Origin: a virus
Taxonomy: Duplodnaviria > Heunggongvirae > Uroviricota > Caudoviricetes
Direction: 5' to 3' (one strand)
IMG/VR virus record: IMGVR_UViG_2690316099_000013
Length of the DNA stretch: 9,385 nucleotides
Below, piece by piece: positions 74-8,392 of the stretch; the stretch's first letter is position 1, and every line of letters begins with the position of its first letter. The position numbers were made by a program, and so were the translations under genes. The notes beneath the pieces were generated by a model. The model saw only the letters and a list, made by a program, of their open reading frames with translations, was not told the origin of the DNA and made no database searches.

Positions 74-628
74 GTGATCGTAAATATGATATATCCGGAA
101 ATTACAGGCAAAAGCGGCGAGCATTTACGTCTAAAAACGCTGGAAGCCGTCTGGATCCAGGGGAAATTACGGATGTGGGGGCGTTGGTCGTATATAGGTG
201 GTGGCAAACCAGGAAATATGTTCAATCAGTTGCTGGCATCCAAAAAACTGACAAAAACCGCGGTCAATGAAGCCCTGCGTAGAATCAGGGAGTCAGGGAT
301 TGATAAACCAGAGCTGGAAGCATTCTTGCGAGAGATGATCGCTGGCAGACAGAAGAGCTGGTTGTCTCACTGTACTGATGCAGAGGCGTTACGCATTGAT
401 GGGGTGATAAGTAAAGCGCTTGCACGTTATCCTGGATTGATTGATATCCTGCGGCAAAGGTACGAAGGGCGGGGGATGAGTAAACGCAAAATGGCTGAAT
501 TGTTGAATGAGGTGCACCCGGAATGGTGTTTTAGTACATGCGAAAAGCGAATTGCTAATTGGTTGGCTGTTGCTGAATATGCGCTATACATCCCTATGCG
601 AGAATCGTTTGCTCAAAAAATGTCTTGA
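74..628 (+). CDS. Putative late-gene antiterminator (Q-like), assigned by position rather than recognised sequence
   Basis: Complete 184-aa ORF (GTG 74; alternative ATG 86; stop TGA 626-628), bounded upstream by an in-frame TGA at 71-73. It is the last ORF before a promoter-like element and a strong intrinsic terminator at 713-737, which is the Q / PR' / tR' arrangement of lambdoid phages. I do not recognise the protein as lambda Q and see no classical CxxC...CxxC zinc motif. Confidence 0.5.
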   Translation: MIVNMIYPEITGKSGEHLRLKTLEAVWIQGKLRMWGRWSYIGGGKPGNMFNQLLASKKLTKTAVNEALRRIRESGIDKPELEAFLREMIAGRQKSWLSHCTDAEALRIDGVISKALARYPGLIDILRQRYEGRGMSKRKMAELLNEVHPEWCFSTCEKRIANWLAVAEYALYIPMRESFAQKMS

Positions 629-1207: not shown

Positions 1208-2257
1208 ATGGCCAATACTGTAAAAATATCCAGTTGTGAGTTAATCAACGCTGATTGCCTGGAATTTATCCAGACCTTACCGGAAAATTCTGTCGATCTG
1301 ATAGTCACAGACCCGCCATACTTTAAAGTGAAGCCCGAGGGCTGGGATAACCAGTGGGAGGGCGACGATGATTACCTGAAATGGCTGGACCAGTGTCTGG
1401 CGCAGTTCTGGCGGGTGCTGAAACCTGCCGGAAGTCTTTACCTGTTCTGTGGTCATCGCCTGGCATCTGACACCGAAATCATGATGCGTGAGCGCTTTAA
1501 TGTGCTGAACCACATTATCTGGGCGAAGCCGTCCGGACGCTGGAACGGGTGCAATAAGGAAAGTCTGCGGGCGTATTTTCCGGCAACAGAGCGCATTCTG
1601 TTTGCAGAACATTATCAGGGACCGTATCGCCCGAAAGATGATGGCTATGTGGCACAGGGGCGCGAGCTAAAACAGCACGTCATGGCCCCGCTGATTTCTT
1701 ACTTTCGTGATGCGCGTAAATCACTGGGAATAACGTCAAAACAGATAGCGGAAGCCACCGGAAAGAAAAACATGGCTTCGCACTGGTTTGGTGCCAGTCA
1801 GTGGCAGTTACCGAACGAGGGTGATTACAATAAATTGCAGGCGTTGTTTGCGCGTGTTGCGGCAGAAAAACATCAGCGCGGGGAACTGGAAAAGCCACAC
1901 CACCAGCTGGTCAGCACATACAGTGAGCTGAACCGGCAGTATACGGAACTGCTGAGTGAATATAAAAATTTGCGGCGGTATTTCGGTGTGACGGCGCAGG
2001 TTCCGTACACCGATGTCTGGACGCATAAACCGGTGCAGTACTATCCAGGGAAACATCCGTGCGAAAAACCGGCAGAAATGCTGCAGCAGATAATCAACGC
2101 GAGCAGTCGTCCGGGAGACCTGGTTGCAGATTTTTTTATGGGTTCAGGTTCAACGGTAAAAGCGGCGATGGCACTGGGGCGTTGTGCGATTGGTGTTGAG
2201 CTGGAGACCGGACGTTTTGAACAGACAGTCAGGGAAGTTCAGGATTTAATCGTTTGA
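1208..2257 (+). CDS. DNA methyltransferase, beta-class amino-MTase (N6-adenine or N4-cytosine); no cognate restriction gene seen
   Basis: 349-aa ORF with the catalytic DPPY motif near the N-terminus (LIVTDPPY) and the AdoMet-binding motif FxGxG near the C-terminus (DFFMGSGST). This motif order (IV before I) is typical of beta-group amino-methyltransferases. Stop TGA 2255-2257. Confidence 0.85.
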   Translation: MANTVKISSCELINADCLEFIQTLPENSVDLIVTDPPYFKVKPEGWDNQWEGDDDYLKWLDQCLAQFWRVLKPAGSLYLFCGHRLASDTEIMMRERFNVLNHIIWAKPSGRWNGCNKESLRAYFPATERILFAEHYQGPYRPKDDGYVAQGRELKQHVMAPLISYFRDARKSLGITSKQIAEATGKKNMASHWFGASQWQLPNEGDYNKLQALFARVAAEKHQRGELEKPHHQLVSTYSELNRQYTELLSEYKNLRRYFGVTAQVPYTDVWTHKPVQYYPGKHPCEKPAEMLQQIINASSRPGDLVADFFMGSGSTVKAAMALGRCAIGVELETGRFEQTVREVQDLIV

Positions 2258-2306: not shown

Positions 2307-2382
2307 GGCCCTTTAGCTCAGTGGTGAGAGCGAGCGACTCATAATCGCCAGGTCGCTGGTTCAAATCCAGCAAGGGCCACCA
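2307..2382 (+). tRNA. ileZ: tRNA-Ile2 (anticodon CAU, presumably lysidine-modified; reads AUA)
   Basis: 76-nt cloverleaf: acceptor GGCCCTT/AAGGGCC, D-arm GCTC..GAGC, anticodon loop CTCATAA, T-loop GGTTCAAATCC, 3' CCA encoded. Closely resembles E. coli ileX-type tRNA as I recall it. Symbol is by analogy with the ileZ-argN-argO triplet of Stx phages. Confidence 0.85.
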
Positions 2383-2389
2383 TCACATA

Positions 2390-2466
2390 CCGCCATTAAC
2401 TCATCAGGATAGAGCGCCAGCCTTCGAAGCTGGTTGCGCGGGGTTCGAGTCCTCGATGGCGGTCCA
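2390..2466 (+). tRNA. argN: tRNA-Arg (anticodon UCG; reads CGA/CGG)
   Basis: 77-nt cloverleaf: acceptor CCGCCAT/ATGGCGG, anticodon stem CCAGC/GCTGG with loop CTTCGAA (anticodon TCG), T-arm CGGGG-TTCGAGT-CCTCG, discriminator T, CCA encoded. The unusual 5' C and a 3-bp D-stem lower confidence slightly. Confidence 0.75.
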
Positions 2467-2479
2467 TTATCTGTACCCT

Positions 2480-2556
2480 GCGTTGTTAGCTCAGCCGGAC
2501 AGAGCAATTGCCTTCTAAGCAATCGGTCACTGGTTCGAATCCAGTACAACGCGCCA
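2480..2556 (+). tRNA. argO: tRNA-Arg (anticodon UCU; reads AGA/AGG)
   Basis: 77-nt cloverleaf: acceptor GCGTTGT/ACAACGC, D-arm GCTC-AGCCGGACA-GAGC, anticodon stem ATTGC/GCAAT with loop CTTCTAA (anticodon TCT), T-arm ACTGG-TTCGAAT-CCAGT, discriminator G, CCA encoded. An N-gap follows 3 nt downstream. Confidence 0.85.
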
Positions 2557-2715
2557 CGCNNNNNNNNNNNNNNNNNNNNNNNNNNNNNNNNNNNNNNNNN
2601 NNNNNNNNNNNNNNNNNNNNNNNNNNNNNNNNAGAGCCTTATACTGAAATATACCTGGCTCAGGATATTGTTGAAAATATTTTATGTTTGTCAAAAATAA
2701 AAGTTCTGTTAAGTA

Positions 2716-3069
2716 TTGATTGAGTGTTTGTTATACGGTCTAATGGTTTTTTCAGCATTAAATATTTATCATTCATATGGTGTGGGTAGAGTGAATATTG
2801 ATGAGGCGTCGGGGTGTTTCATCCTTAGGCAGCGTATTGATATAGTCAATGCAGCACGAGCAAAGGCCTTCAGCCGTTTGACAGTTTTGTTCTGTACTCC
2901 TGATCGTCTTTCGGGAAGAGACGTTATTATTCTGAATAGTGATGCTATACAGAGGGTTTGCGATGAGTTCATGGTTGCTAATTCAGAATTATTTGCTCTT
3001 GTTCAGGAGTACAACAGAATAGCCAGGACCTGTGGTATGGATGAACTTCGGATTACTCATCTGGGGTAG
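2716..3069 (+). CDS. Orphan hypothetical protein in the stx-equivalent cargo slot; start uncertain (ATG 2716 or 2743, GTG 2782 or 2791)
   Basis: Open frame ending TAG 3067-3069 with an AT-rich leader at 2633-2790. From the GTG at 2791, 10 of 93 codons are AGG, AGA, AUA, CGA or CGG, the codons decoded by the three adjacent tRNAs. I recognise no family. No convincing Shine-Dalgarno precedes any candidate start. Confidence 0.4.
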   Translation: MIECLLYGLMVFSALNIYHSYGVGRVNIDEASGCFILRQRIDIVNAARAKAFSRLTVLFCTPDRLSGRDVIILNSDAIQRVCDEFMVANSELFALVQEYNRIARTCGMDELRITHLG

Positions 3070-3149
3070 ATACATATCTGGATTATCACCTGTTACGGTA
3101 AAAAGTGATTGCTTACTGTTTTTGTGAATGGCATTGCAGCAGCCGGATA

Positions 3150-3236
3150 ATGTCAGTGCTGGCTGACGGTGTGCTGGTGGCGGGTGTGGTGGTTGTTGCT
3201 TTCCCGTTGCTGAAAAAGAAAACGCCAGACTGTTAG
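3150..3236 (+). CDS. Small hydrophobic peptide (28 aa, MSVLADGVLVAGVVVVAFPLLKKKTPDC); paralogue of the 3' part of the 3797-3949 gene
   Basis: ATG 3150, TAG 3234-3236. The first 11 codons are identical in protein to codons 26-36 of the downstream gene and differ only at synonymous third positions. DNA upstream (3098-3149) resembles the 5' part of the downstream gene but carries an in-frame stop, so this may be a decayed copy expressed from an internal ATG, or a remnant. Confidence 0.35.
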   Translation: MSVLADGVLVAGVVVVAFPLLKKKTPDC

Positions 3237-3374
3237 CCGGGTATCAGTTAGCGGGAGAAATTTTTAAATACTTCACAATTCAGGCGGTTGACTGTTGNNN
3301 NNNNNNNNGTGTGACTTTCTCTGTGGGCTGGTCACCCCCGGGCGCAGGCTCACCCACTAAAAGGAAAAGTCACG

Positions 3375-5604: not shown

Positions 5605-5872
5605 NNNNNNNNNNNNNNNNNNNNNNNNNNNNNNNNNNNNNNNNNNNNNNNNNNNNNNNNNNNNNNNNNNNNNNNNNNNNNNNNNNNNNNNNNNNNNNNN
5701 NNNNNNNNNNNNNNNNNNNNNNNNNNNTAAATTCTTTCTGTCGCCGCGAATACTCAAATGTTGATCAGTGCCCGGTGCGGCGACGGGCTTCGATATCAGG
5801 AGACGATGATGGAAAAAAACAGAAAACAAACCGATTGTAATTGGTGCTGATGCTGCTCCGTTTAAGTTTGAG

Positions 5873-6202
5873 TTGTCTCAACTGGTGGAGATGCGTATCA
5901 GTGATGAATGGGGTGAGGTTAAAGCCCGCGCGCAGTATGCGGATGGCGAAAACCAGTACTTGATCCACTACAAAGCAGCTGATGGTCGCGCCACGACGGA
6001 GTGGTTTGGTGAGTCAATGCTGGAAGCAACAGAAGATGATCGTCATCCGGGTTGTCCGGTATTTGCCGGTATGAAATTACCGGAAGGTGCAGTTGAACTG
6101 CAGCCGGGTGAGGTGTTCGTAATGACAGACATCATTGATGGTAAACCGCAGTATTCGCGTATTGAAATGAATAGTAAGAGTGCTCGCCTGATTCGTGAGT
6201 AA
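5873..6202 (+). CDS. Hypothetical protein; probably the 3' part of a longer gene starting at ATG 5806/5809 that is split at an A7 homopolymer (5813-5819)
   Basis: Frame is open from 5810 to TAA 6200-6202; the track start is TTG 5873. An AGGAG Shine-Dalgarno at 5798-5802 precedes ATG ATG at 5806-5811, but that frame stops after 14 codons. Removing one A from the A7 run fuses it to the long ORF. Confidence 0.5.
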   Translation: MSQLVEMRISDEWGEVKARAQYADGENQYLIHYKAADGRATTEWFGESMLEATEDDRHPGCPVFAGMKLPEGAVELQPGEVFVMTDIIDGKPQYSRIEMNSKSARLIRE

Positions 6203-6210
6203 CAGGCATT

Positions 6211-6241
6211 ACAGCAGCCCTTCACTCTAAGGGGTTGCTGT
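6211..6241. terminator. Hairpin between convergent genes (possible bidirectional terminator)
   Basis: About 10-bp stem ACAGCAGCCC (6211-6220) / GGGGTTGCTGT (6231-6241) with one G-T wobble and a 10-nt loop. It lies between the + gene stop (6202) and the minus-strand region. No clean U-tract. Confidence 0.25.
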
Positions 6242-6812
6242 AATGTGAGAAATAAAAAACCGGTCACAGGGAGCAGCTACACAGAAGCGGCCGGCGAAGA
6301 CCGCCAATACCACCCATGCATTGATGCAACATACTAATGACAATAGCCGCTATTGATGTAAATGCAATGTTATGCATCGACGAAAATAAAAAACCNNNNN
6401 NNNNNNNNNNNNNNNNNNNNNNNNNNNNNNNNNNNNNNNNNNNNNNNNNNNNNNNNNNNNNNNNNNNNNNNNNNNNNNNNNNNNNNNNNNNNNNNNNNNN
6501 NNNNNNNNNNNNNNNNNNNNNNNNNNNNNNNNNNNNNNNNNNNNNNNNNNNNNNNNNNNNNNNNNNNNNNNNNNNNNNNNNNNNNNNNNNNNNNNNNNNN
6601 NNNNNNNNNNNNNNNNNNNNNNNNNNNNNNNNNNNNNNNNNNNNNNNNNNNNNNNNNNNNNNNNNNNNNNNNNNNNNNNNNNNNNNNNNNNNNNNNNNNN
6701 NNNNNNNNNNNNNNNNNNNNNNNNNNNNNNNNNNNNNNNNNNNNNNNNNNNNNNNNNNNNNNNNNNNNNNNNNNNNNNNNNNNNNNNNNNNNNNNNNNNN
6801 NNNNNNNNNNNN

Positions 6813-7037
6813 ATTTTTTGAAAATCTTACATTTACAACCTTACCCTGTCCTTTTATTAAAACCGTATTATCGTTTTCAAGAACAAGATGAATATTCTCT
6901 GTGGCTAAATAGTAAATGTAATGTGAGACATTGTGACGTTTTAGTTCAGAATAAAACCAGTGATAGTTTAAATTATTTCGCACTTTATCGAATATTTGTT
7001 TAAAAATGGCAACCTGAGCCATTGTAGTACCTTCCAT
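6813..7037 (-). CDS. AT-rich hypothetical protein, N-terminal 75 codons only (rest lost in the 417-nt N-gap)
   Basis: Minus-strand ORF beginning [37 protein letters not shown]... The second ATG (minus-strand codon at 7022-7020) has a good Shine-Dalgarno (GGAAGG, 7-nt spacer) and is the more likely start. Low GC relative to flanking DNA, with AUA, AGA and CGA codons present. It lies 57 nt downstream of the RHH gene on the same strand. Confidence 0.5.
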
Positions 7038-7079
7038 GTGATATGAGGGGGCGTAGTCTGCACGATTATCTAAATTGCT

Positions 7080-7313
7080 TCAATCTGGTCTAACCTGTTT
7101 TCTGAGCAATTCAGTAATGTCACTCTTTTCTTTGTTTGCTTCAGGCGAAACTCTTTTTTCTGAGCACAGTCTCCGGCGGCAGGCTTCAATGACCCAGGCT
7201 GAGAAATTCCCGGACCCTTTTTGAACAAGAGCGATGTTAATTTGTTCAATCATTTGGTTAGGAAAGCGGATGTTGCGGGTTGTTGTTCTGCGGGTTCTGT
7301 TCTTCGTTGACAT
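7080..7313 (-). CDS. Ribbon-helix-helix (Arc/MetJ/CopG-type) DNA-binding protein, 77 aa
   Basis: The segment RNIRFPNQMIEQINIALVQKGSGNFSAWVIEACRRRL fits the RHH strand-helix-G-helix pattern, compared with P22 Arc/Mnt and TraY from memory. Basic N-terminal tail; 6 of its Arg codons are AGA. Start ATG on the minus strand at 7313-7311; stop at 7082-7080. Confidence 0.6.
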   Translation of the reverse strand: MSTKNRTRRTTTRNIRFPNQMIEQINIALVQKGSGNFSAWVIEACRRRLCSEKRVSPEANKEKSDITELLRKQVRPD

Positions 7314-7317
7314 GAGG

Positions 7318-7363
7318 TTGCCCTGTATTCAGTGTCGCTGATTTGTATTGTCTGAAGTTGTTT
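7318..7363. repeat. 46-bp exact direct repeat, copy 1, abutting the N-gap
   Basis: TTGCCCTGTATTCAGTGTCGCTGATTTGTATTGTCTGAAGTTGTTT is identical to 7469-7514 on the other side of the 105-nt gap. Confidence 0.9.
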
Positions 7364-7468
7364 NNNNNNNNNNNNNNNNNNNNNNNNNNNNNNNNNNNNN
7401 NNNNNNNNNNNNNNNNNNNNNNNNNNNNNNNNNNNNNNNNNNNNNNNNNNNNNNNNNNNNNNNNNNNN

Positions 7469-7514
7469 TTGCCCTGTATTCAGTGTCGCTGATTTGTATT
7501 GTCTGAAGTTGTTT
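7469..7514. repeat. 46-bp exact direct repeat, copy 2, abutting the N-gap
   Basis: Identical to 7318-7363. The sequence continues into lambda-like right-end DNA (TTACGTTAAGTTGATGCAGATC...). Confidence 0.9.
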
Positions 7515-7629
7515 TTACGTTAAGTTGATGCAGATCAATTAATACGATACCTGCGTCATAATTGATTATTTGACGTGGTTTGATGGCGTAGATGCACGTT
7601 GTGACATGTAGATGATAATTATTATCATT

Positions 7630-7852
7630 TTGCGGGTCCTTTCCGGCGATCCGACAGGTTACGGGGCGGAAGGCGCGCGGGTTTTCGCTATTTATGAAAA
7701 TTTTCCGGTTTAAGGCGTTTCCGTTCTTCTTCTCCGTAACTTCATGTTTTTATTTAAAACACCCCCTGAAAAGAAAGGAAACGACAGGTGCTGAAAGCGA
7801 GCTTTTTGGCCTCTGTCGTTTCCTTTCTCTGTTTTTGTCCGTGGAATGAACA
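7630..7852 (+). other. cos: cos site (cosQ-cosN-cosB) of a lambda-type packaging module
   Basis: The sequence ...CCGACAGGTTACG | GGGCGGAAGGCG | CGCGGGTTTTCGCTATTTATGAAAATTTTCCGGTTTAAGGCGTTTCCGTTCTTC... aligns with the lambda right-end / left-end junction as I recall it. cosN cohesive-end positions are 7664-7675, and the cosB R-sites and IHF region extend to the Nu1 start. Confidence 0.85.
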
Positions 7853-8392
7853 ATGGAAGTCAACAAAAAGCAGCTGGCTGACATTTTCGGTGCGAGTATC
7901 CGTACCATTCAGAACTGGCAGGAACAGGGAATGCCCGTTCTGCGAGGCGGTGGCAAGGGTAATGAGGTGCTTTATGACTCTGCCGCCGTCATAAAATGGT
8001 ATGCCGAAAGGGATGCTGAAATTGAGAACGAAAAGCTGCGCCGGGAAGTTGAAGAACTGCGGCAGGCCAGCGAGACAGATCTCCAGCCAGGGACTATTGA
8101 GTACGAACGCCATCGACTTACGCGTGCGCAGGCCGACGCACAGGANAATGCCAGAGACTCCGCTGAAGTGGTGGAAACCGCATTCTGTACTTTCGTGCTG
8201 TCGCGGATCGCAGGTGAAATTGCCAGTATTCTCGACGGGATCCCCCTGTCGGTGCAGCGGCGTTTTCCGGAACTGGAAAACCGACATGTTGATTTCCTGA
8301 AACGGGATATCATCAAAGCCATGAACAAAGCAGCCGCGCTGGATGAACTGATACCGGGGTTGCTGAGTGAATATATCGAACAGTCAGGTTAA
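7853..8392 (+). CDS. nu1: Terminase small subunit gpNu1
   Basis: ATG 7853, TAA 8390-8392. The translation [74 protein letters not shown]...[14 protein letters not shown] matches lambda Nu1 almost residue for residue from memory. An N at 8146 coincides with an apparent in-frame loss of about 2 codons. Confidence 0.95.

Follow-up and report, generated by a model that had tools for sequence, protein, structure and literature searches.

The right end of a lambdoid Escherichia coli prophage, represented here by a 9,385-nucleotide (nt) stretch of viral DNA (IMG/VR record IMGVR_UViG_2690316099_000013; 'the window' denotes this whole stretch), raises the question of what two small genes are doing on the minus strand between the lysis genes and cos. 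An earlier note, made from the sequence alone, had read them as a toxin-antitoxin-like module composed of a ribbon-helix-helix (RHH) DNA-binding protein and an AT-rich partner gene. Both open reading frames (ORFs) were present as described: an ORF of 77 amino acids (aa) and a co-oriented AT-rich ORF entering a run of N, opposite to the plus-strand genes on both sides, with the holin and M15 endolysin genes to the left and nu1 to the right. The two genes were already catalogued and named in E. coli K-12 and phage lambda, as ynfO/ylcI and ydfO/ybcV respectively; they resemble the usual optional cargo of prophages and not a toxin-antitoxin pair, and they occur independently of each other.

The upstream ORF (7080-7313, ATG start, TGA stop) can be assigned to the YlcI/YnfO family. 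Its product matched Pfam DUF3950 (PF13132) at 72.8 bits against a cut-off of 25 and NCBIfam NF041551 at 35.2 bits against a cut-off of 30, was 100 % identical to WP_001331705.1 and shared 97 % identity with K-12 YnfO. The downstream gene is likewise assignable to the DUF1398/YdfO family. It extends from 7022 into a run of 417 N at 6396-6812, and 100 %-identical relatives stood in for its masked part. The visible fragment matched Pfam DUF1398 (PF07166) at 71.7 bits against a cut-off of 22, and its 70 aa were 100 % identical to WP_000079508.1; the full-length relative of 136 aa scored 147 bits for DUF1398 and matched PDB 2HH8, a nuclear magnetic resonance structure of E. coli YdfO, with an E value of 2.9e-67. 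Identity to E. coli YdfO was approximately 75 %. Given these Pfam, NCBIfam and PDB matches and the counterparts in Qin, lambda and DLP12, both genes are therefore already known and named. The ATG at 7022 is the start called by the Prokaryotic Genome Annotation Pipeline (PGAP) in identical relatives, with GGAAGG at 7030-7035, and leaves 70 codons visible. The 57-nt spacer previously reported (7023-7079) fits this start, whereas the accompanying count of 75 codons needs an upstream in-frame ATG at 7037. The end of the gene is expected near 6612, provided that the size of the 417-N gap is correct. Over 551 visible bases the window was 99.6-99.8 % identical to phage PhiR49_1 and E. coli strain 582, in which both proteins were identical to those of the window over all visible residues, and the same DUF1398 allele was also carried by phages ev099, Kati and Chlobot. 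The downstream gene is indeed AT-rich, with a GC content of 29.5 % in its visible part and 31 % over the full gene in a 100 %-identical relative, compared with 44 % for ylcI and 50 % for the window.

Of 5426 complete E. coli genomes, 4184 contained the ylcI core, which occurred at 9861 places. Comparison of lambda-type with Shiga toxin (Stx)-type phages over ylcI codons 1-50 gave a synonymous divergence (dS) of 0.8-1.6 and a ratio of nonsynonymous to synonymous divergence (dN/dS) of 0.04-0.10, and the DNA flanking ylcI was unrelated between these phages on both sides. The conserved unit is therefore the YlcI protein core itself. Past codon 50, the C-terminal tails were mosaic among aligned relatives. 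For DUF1398 alleles dN/dS was 0.2-0.4; the allele of the window was found in 1063 records at an identity of at least 99 %, and the family as a whole is narrow, with 184 representatives among 1.84 billion proteins. Judged from these sequence comparisons, both ORFs are real genes under purifying selection and not chance ORFs.

If the pair were a type II toxin-antitoxin or abortive-infection (Abi) module, YnfO would be an RHH antitoxin that regulates its own operon and acts through its C-terminal tail to neutralise a toxin, the DUF1398 protein. Several features are consistent with such a module: a small RHH-like YnfO with a low-confidence, partly helical C-terminal tail lies upstream of a co-oriented gene with no terminator between them, the best weak structural matches of YlcI were the antitoxins ParD, MazE and RelB, and a weak HicB-like match was obtained in PHROG (E value 0.055). 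Among the 80 IMG/VR loci that carry the 77-aa YnfO subtype, DUF1398 was directly downstream in 79, at a distance of 56-59 nt in 78 and 138 nt in one. This pairing carries little weight, because the loci are near-identical DNA. Elsewhere the two genes part company. Phage records encoding YlcI numbered 155 and those encoding DUF1398 43, and most ylcI copies lacked DUF1398, including those of Stx phages, where ylcI is divergent from HNH-terS-terL. The DUF1398 paralogue ycgX was solitary beside bluR in 5052 of the 5426 E. coli genomes (93 %; PMC3509220), and distant DUF1398 genes (27-37 % identity) were monocistronic and chromosomal with no YlcI nearby in five of five cases. In lambda and DLP12, the opposite-strand gene ybcW splits the pair and the YlcI tail differs. 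Nor was there co-variation, since YnfO, at 97-100 % identity, was paired with DUF1398 alleles only 75 % identical to each other. PADLOC-DB v2 returned no match for YlcI and only Csx23 at an E value of 0.023 for DUF1398, and an ASKA overexpression clone of ybcV gave scorable colonies (PMC2853380).

For the upstream product, the earlier note had proposed an RHH protein. The AlphaFold2 monomer of YlcI (mean predicted local distance difference test score 71, core approximately 87) comprised an extended segment at residues 13-18 followed by helices at 19-32 and 34-52, a shape like that of an RHH monomer, in which the predicted strand would form only in a dimer. Weak structural matches included ParD, MazE, RelB, CopG and MatP, but no sequence or structure match between YlcI and known RHH proteins reached statistical significance. 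On the strength of the model, an RHH (Arc/MetJ/CopG) assignment of YlcI/YnfO is plausible. A literature search on YlcI, YnfO, DUF3950, YdfO, YbcV and DUF1398 found no paper dedicated to these proteins.

For the downstream protein, the earlier note had named RelE/ParE, nuclease and Abi folds as ones to look for. The full-length relative matches the YdfO structure, and this YdfO-like fold did not resemble any of RelE/ParE, nuclease or Abi type and had no toxin relatives. A match of the 75-aa fragment to HEPN_AbiA_CTD (E value 0.0027, below the cut-off) vanished when the full-length protein was used, and an R-x5-H motif in helix 1, considered as a further HEPN hint, was not conserved in the DUF1398 family alignment. 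It had also been argued that a known structural role for this gene would count against a module. Nominally such a role exists, through the label 'head protein' in RefSeq and PHROG 413, but the label is without visible support; it appears on DUF1398/YbcV entries such as NC_049953.1 gp71 and NC_001416.1, and older records read 'putative envelope protein'. We rejected the label because lambdap78, the lambda homologue of the gene, is non-essential, because the gene lies antisense to the late operon and because solitary homologues occur on chromosomes, and it is likely an annotation propagated without support. Under CRISPR interference, lambdap78 gave an efficiency of plating of 1.9 (PMC10695390), and loss of ydfO was tolerated in avian pathogenic E. 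coli (PMC8711792). A statement that YdfO overexpression protects against H2O2 (PMC4077768) was also set aside, as the source cited for YdfO and oxidative stress (Wang et al. 2010, PMC3105296) names YfdK, YfdO and YfdS of CPS-53 and never ydfO. The same mix-up of ydfO and yfdO occurs in the SrsR paper (PMC9181523).

The proposal of a moron between the lysis genes and cos was borne out: the cassette is AT-rich, lies on the opposite strand and is optional in relatives, and its lambda and DLP12 homologues adjoin bor/borD. It was absent from some related phages, including relatives that have the left flank of the window. The cassette is thus an optional lambdoid moron insert of deviant base composition at an operon boundary, between the lysis genes and cos. 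In K-12, RNA sequencing showed that ylcI is transcribed, with a convergent overlap of ybcW and ylcI (PMC12288877), and expression of ybcV reportedly depends on PdhR (PMC7660256). No canonical terminator was found in the cassette, and the spacer at 7023-7079 folded at only -3.1 kcal/mol, with no terminator-like structure. Because the 57-nt spacer is free of a terminator, ynfO and the DUF1398 gene are probably co-transcribed in the Qin-type arrangement. A candidate operator, the imperfect inverted repeat ATCAATTAATACG-N7-CGTCATAATTGAT at 7534-7566, was identified 71-103 nt upstream of the ylcI ATG as measured in ungapped relatives. This repeat was absent upstream of ylcI in Stx-type phages and is therefore not a universal YlcI operator.

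We consider it probable that the locus is a Qin-type ynfO-ydfO accessory (moron) cassette, in which an RHH-like YlcI module is accompanied by DUF1398 cargo that is not locked to it. YnfO/YlcI would be a small dimeric RHH-like DNA-binding protein, whose basic N-terminal arm, strand and two helices may bind a conserved DNA target and which, expressed from the prophage, would regulate transcription. The ylcI gene may represent an autonomous module at the boundary of the lysis and packaging genes, with variable AT-rich cargo inserted downstream of it, in this case YdfO/YbcV. The cargo product would be a cytoplasmic alpha/beta protein with its own fold (an alpha-alpha-beta-beta-beta unit occurring twice) that is dispensable for lytic growth, and the two genes would be co-transcribed here, yet not locked together as toxin and antitoxin. 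Several observations weigh against this reading. When the minus strand of an ungapped relative was scanned upstream of ylcI, no consensus sigma-70 promoter emerged, and no operator common to the lambda-type and Stx-type ylcI contexts was conserved. Within the 77-aa subtype, where 79 of 80 loci are paired, a functional link may exist, although the DNA of these loci is almost the same. In addition, ydfO stands on an 'essential' list of strain BW25113 derived from transposon-directed insertion site sequencing (TraDIS) and reused in PMC8229198; the available part of the supplement text of that paper contained no mention of ynfO, ybcV, ylcI or ycgX. The listing is discordant with the deletability of the whole Qin prophage; an artefact of transposon insertion, the gene being short and AT-rich, could account for it, as could a protective role. 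As far as this partial source goes, TraDIS flags ydfO and not ynfO, the reverse of what would be expected of a toxin and its antitoxin.

A second explanation holds that YlcI acts in cis at the lysis-packaging boundary, as a regulator close to cos or to the terminase genes that might, for example, dampen transcription entering or leaving the head operon in lysogens, with DUF1398 as unrelated cargo. The position of ylcI is suggestive of this, as it always adjoins and diverges from the first packaging gene, both in lambda-type and in HNH-terS-terL-type phages, which have no common flanking DNA; nu1 was approximately 390 nt from ylcI in 66 of the 80 IMG/VR loci, ylcI has also been reported from capsid-forming phage-inducible chromosomal islands carrying TerS/TerL (PMC13612085), and the YlcI core is extremely conserved. 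However, the two kinds of context offer no common upstream or downstream sequence to serve as a cis target, no ylcI at all occurs in related phages whose nu1/cos is of this kind, and the lambda Rz-cos region is listed as non-essential (PMC10695390). We regard a cis role as unlikely.

It is improbable, in our estimation, that the cassette is a factor in phage-host or phage-phage conflict (counter-defence, decoy or superinfection exclusion) and not one of host physiology. Genes of conflict do occur at this site. According to a 2026 preprint, the ybcW homologue of lambda, lambdap79, triggers the Vulcan NADase defence, from which lambda escapes by recombining with Qin; the exchange removes lambdap79 and leaves the ynfO-ydfO arrangement of the window (bioRxiv 10.64898/2026.09.04.749371). 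The lambdap79/ybcW homologue is located at lambda 47738-47944 and is absent from the window at 7023-7079, and a phage with the layout of the window is predicted not to trigger Vulcan via lambdap79. Moreover, bor is a neighbour in lambda and DLP12, and the DUF1398 family is narrow and fast-evolving, as its dN/dS values attest. Against a conflict role, the cassette matched no PADLOC model, the searchable literature yielded no experimental phenotype, and solitary chromosomal DUF1398 genes outside prophages argue for a role in host physiology.

The toxin-antitoxin or Abi module is very improbable, given that the genes are not an obligate pair, no toxin fold was found, PADLOC was negative and the lambda homologue is dispensable. 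It is similarly very doubtful that in the Qin-type arrangement YnfO (RHH core plus subtype tail) and DUF1398 could form a two-protein module with an unrecognised effector fold; such a module might be one of conflict or addiction, or DUF1398 might be a protective partner, an idea that would fit the 'essential' score of ydfO in TraDIS alongside the deletability of the whole of Qin.

Features of the window and of the ylcI-DUF1398 cassette (positions are those of the window)
Feature	Positions	Strand	Remarks
DUF1133/Q-like gene	74-628		Leftmost gene of the window
DNA methyltransferase gene	1208-2257		Named from the annotation in a relative
Three tRNAs	2307-2556		Downstream of the DUF1133/Q-like and methyltransferase genes
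tRNA-Arg(UCU)	2480-2556	+	
TerB-like gene	Right of the tRNAs		
Two holin genes and M15 endolysin gene	In that order to the right of the TerB-like gene	+	Lysis side
N run (417 N)	6396-6812		Covers the remainder of the DUF1398 gene and the left-flank junction
ydfO/ybcV-type DUF1398 gene, first 70 codons	6813-7022	-	136 aa in relatives
Intergenic spacer, 57 nt	7023-7079	-	Includes Shine-Dalgarno GGAAGG at 7030-7035
ynfO/ylcI-type gene, 77 aa	7080-7313	-	Small basic protein of the YlcI/YnfO family (DUF3950) by ORF list, Pfam, NCBIfam and protein identity
Conserved ylcI core, codons 1-50	7164-7313	-	Predicted strand and two helices after a basic N-terminal arm (alignment, dN/dS, AlphaFold2)
ylcI upstream region as far as cosN	7314-7663	-	Includes a 105-N run at 7364-7468
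cosN cohesive-end sequence	7664-7675	+	GGGCGGAAGGCG
nu1, small terminase gene	7853-8392	+	Divergent from ylcI; Pfam Phage_Nu1, 3.1e-61
Large terminase gene, start only	Right of nu1		

The window is a gapped scaffold, locally of poor quality, and the lengths of its N runs (which also include runs of 73, 451, 123 and 73) disagree with those of close relatives. An exact 46-bp direct repeat (7318-7363 and 7469-7514) surrounds the 105-N run; close relatives contain these 46 bp only once, with nothing additional, and the region around this run spans 888 bp in the window compared with 737 bp in the record of a relative. The repeat looks like an assembly artefact in which overlapping contig ends were joined with a mis-sized gap. 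The left flank at 5728-6395 is like that of phiP27 and the E400634 prophage, and in such relatives it runs straight into nu1 without ylcI-ybcV. The join of this flank to ybcV across the 417-N run was seen neither in the 5426 complete E. coli genomes nor in the 80 IMG/VR loci, so that the local context may be a chimeric scaffold or else an uncommon mosaic. This problem has no bearing on the identity of the two genes.

Contaminant lambda DNA was encountered in assemblies labelled Pseudomonas, Kitasatospora, Brevibacillus ('plasmid'), Arcanobacterium ('plasmid unnamed1', 3566 bp), Cohnella, Flavobacterium and others, both as whole 48.5-kb genomes and as right-end fragments of approximately 3.5-3.6 kb, the latter probably a sequencing control amplicon. 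Frameshifted copies among these contaminants inflate the homologue lists for both proteins.

The earlier note had also linked the arginine codons of the 77-aa gene to the phage tRNA-Arg(UCU). The six AGA codons (of 11 arginine codons) and the tRNA are both real, but adaptation of the one to the other does not follow, because these AGA codons recur in the Qin and lambda copies: all six are found in Qin ynfO and four in lambda ylcI, and no such tRNA was found nearby in the Qin and lambda records. Lambda is not known to encode a tRNA. Stx-type phages usually carry this tRNA cluster, and their ylcI has only one or two AGA codons. The cluster at 2307-2556 consists of a CAT tRNA (Met according to ARAGORN, Ile according to PGAP in a relative), Arg-TCG and Arg-TCT, and an Rfam scan of the window returned three tRNAs only.

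Elsewhere in the window, the stretch at 2633-3297, which has N runs at both ends, was missing from the E400634 prophage, whose sequence is 99.9 % identical otherwise; the stretch contains a 117-aa ORF (2716-3069) with no Pfam match, in which six of 11 arginine codons are AGA or AGG. A 109-aa ORF at 5873-6202, upstream of the cassette, likewise had no Pfam match. Just left of the 417-N run, the minus strand carries a short hydrophobic ORF of 37 aa (MHNIAFTSIAAIVISMLHQCMGGIGGLRRPLLCSCSL, 6264-6377), where the E400634 prophage is unannotated. The cosN sequence of the window, GGGCGGAAGGCG, differs at several positions from that of lambda, GGGCGGCGACCT, and the cosQ-side and cosB-side sequences around 7664-7675 are lambda-like.

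As a discovery the cassette carries little weight, consisting as it does of named K-12 and lambda y-genes present in about three-quarters of complete E. coli genomes, one of them with a solved structure. Its value lies in other respects. The 50-residue YlcI core, unusually conserved across phages without common flanks, offers DNA-binding or chromatin immunoprecipitation work an inexpensive and clearly delimited target, and the ylcI-ybcV site has turned out to harbour a trigger of defence (lambdap79, Vulcan). The 'head protein' label of DUF1398 and one claim regarding YdfO and oxidative stress are apparent errors worth correcting.

Among known systems, YlcI resembles RHH antitoxins and repressors (ParD, RelB, Bacillus subtilis MazE, CopG and Arc/Mnt) in its size, basic N-terminal arm, predicted strand-helix-helix arrangement and flexible C-terminal tail, but unlike the RHH antitoxins it is without a conserved partner toxin. 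The cassette as a whole is comparable to lambda bor and lom, which are also non-essential, compositionally distinct and situated at operon boundaries, and whose transcription apart from the late operon the cassette may share; bor and lom, however, encode envelope proteins with known phenotypes, whereas YbcV has no evident signal peptide. The ylcI-ybcW-ybcV-bor(D) region of lambda and DLP12 shares with the window the site between Rz and cos, a YlcI core 94.5 % identical over 55 aa and a YbcV 76-78 % identical to the DUF1398 protein. It differs in its 64-aa YlcI with a different tail, in the opposite-strand ybcW/lambdap79 between the genes and in bor downstream; the visible window lacks ybcW, bor and the lambda-type YlcI tail. 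The closest counterpart is ynfO-ydfO of the K-12 Qin prophage (b4533 and b1549). Its YdfO allele differs by approximately 25 % at the protein level and its YnfO is 97 % identical, and the arrangement is that of the window, with 77 aa, a 57-nt spacer and 136 aa in succession, divergent from the nu1 homologue nohA.

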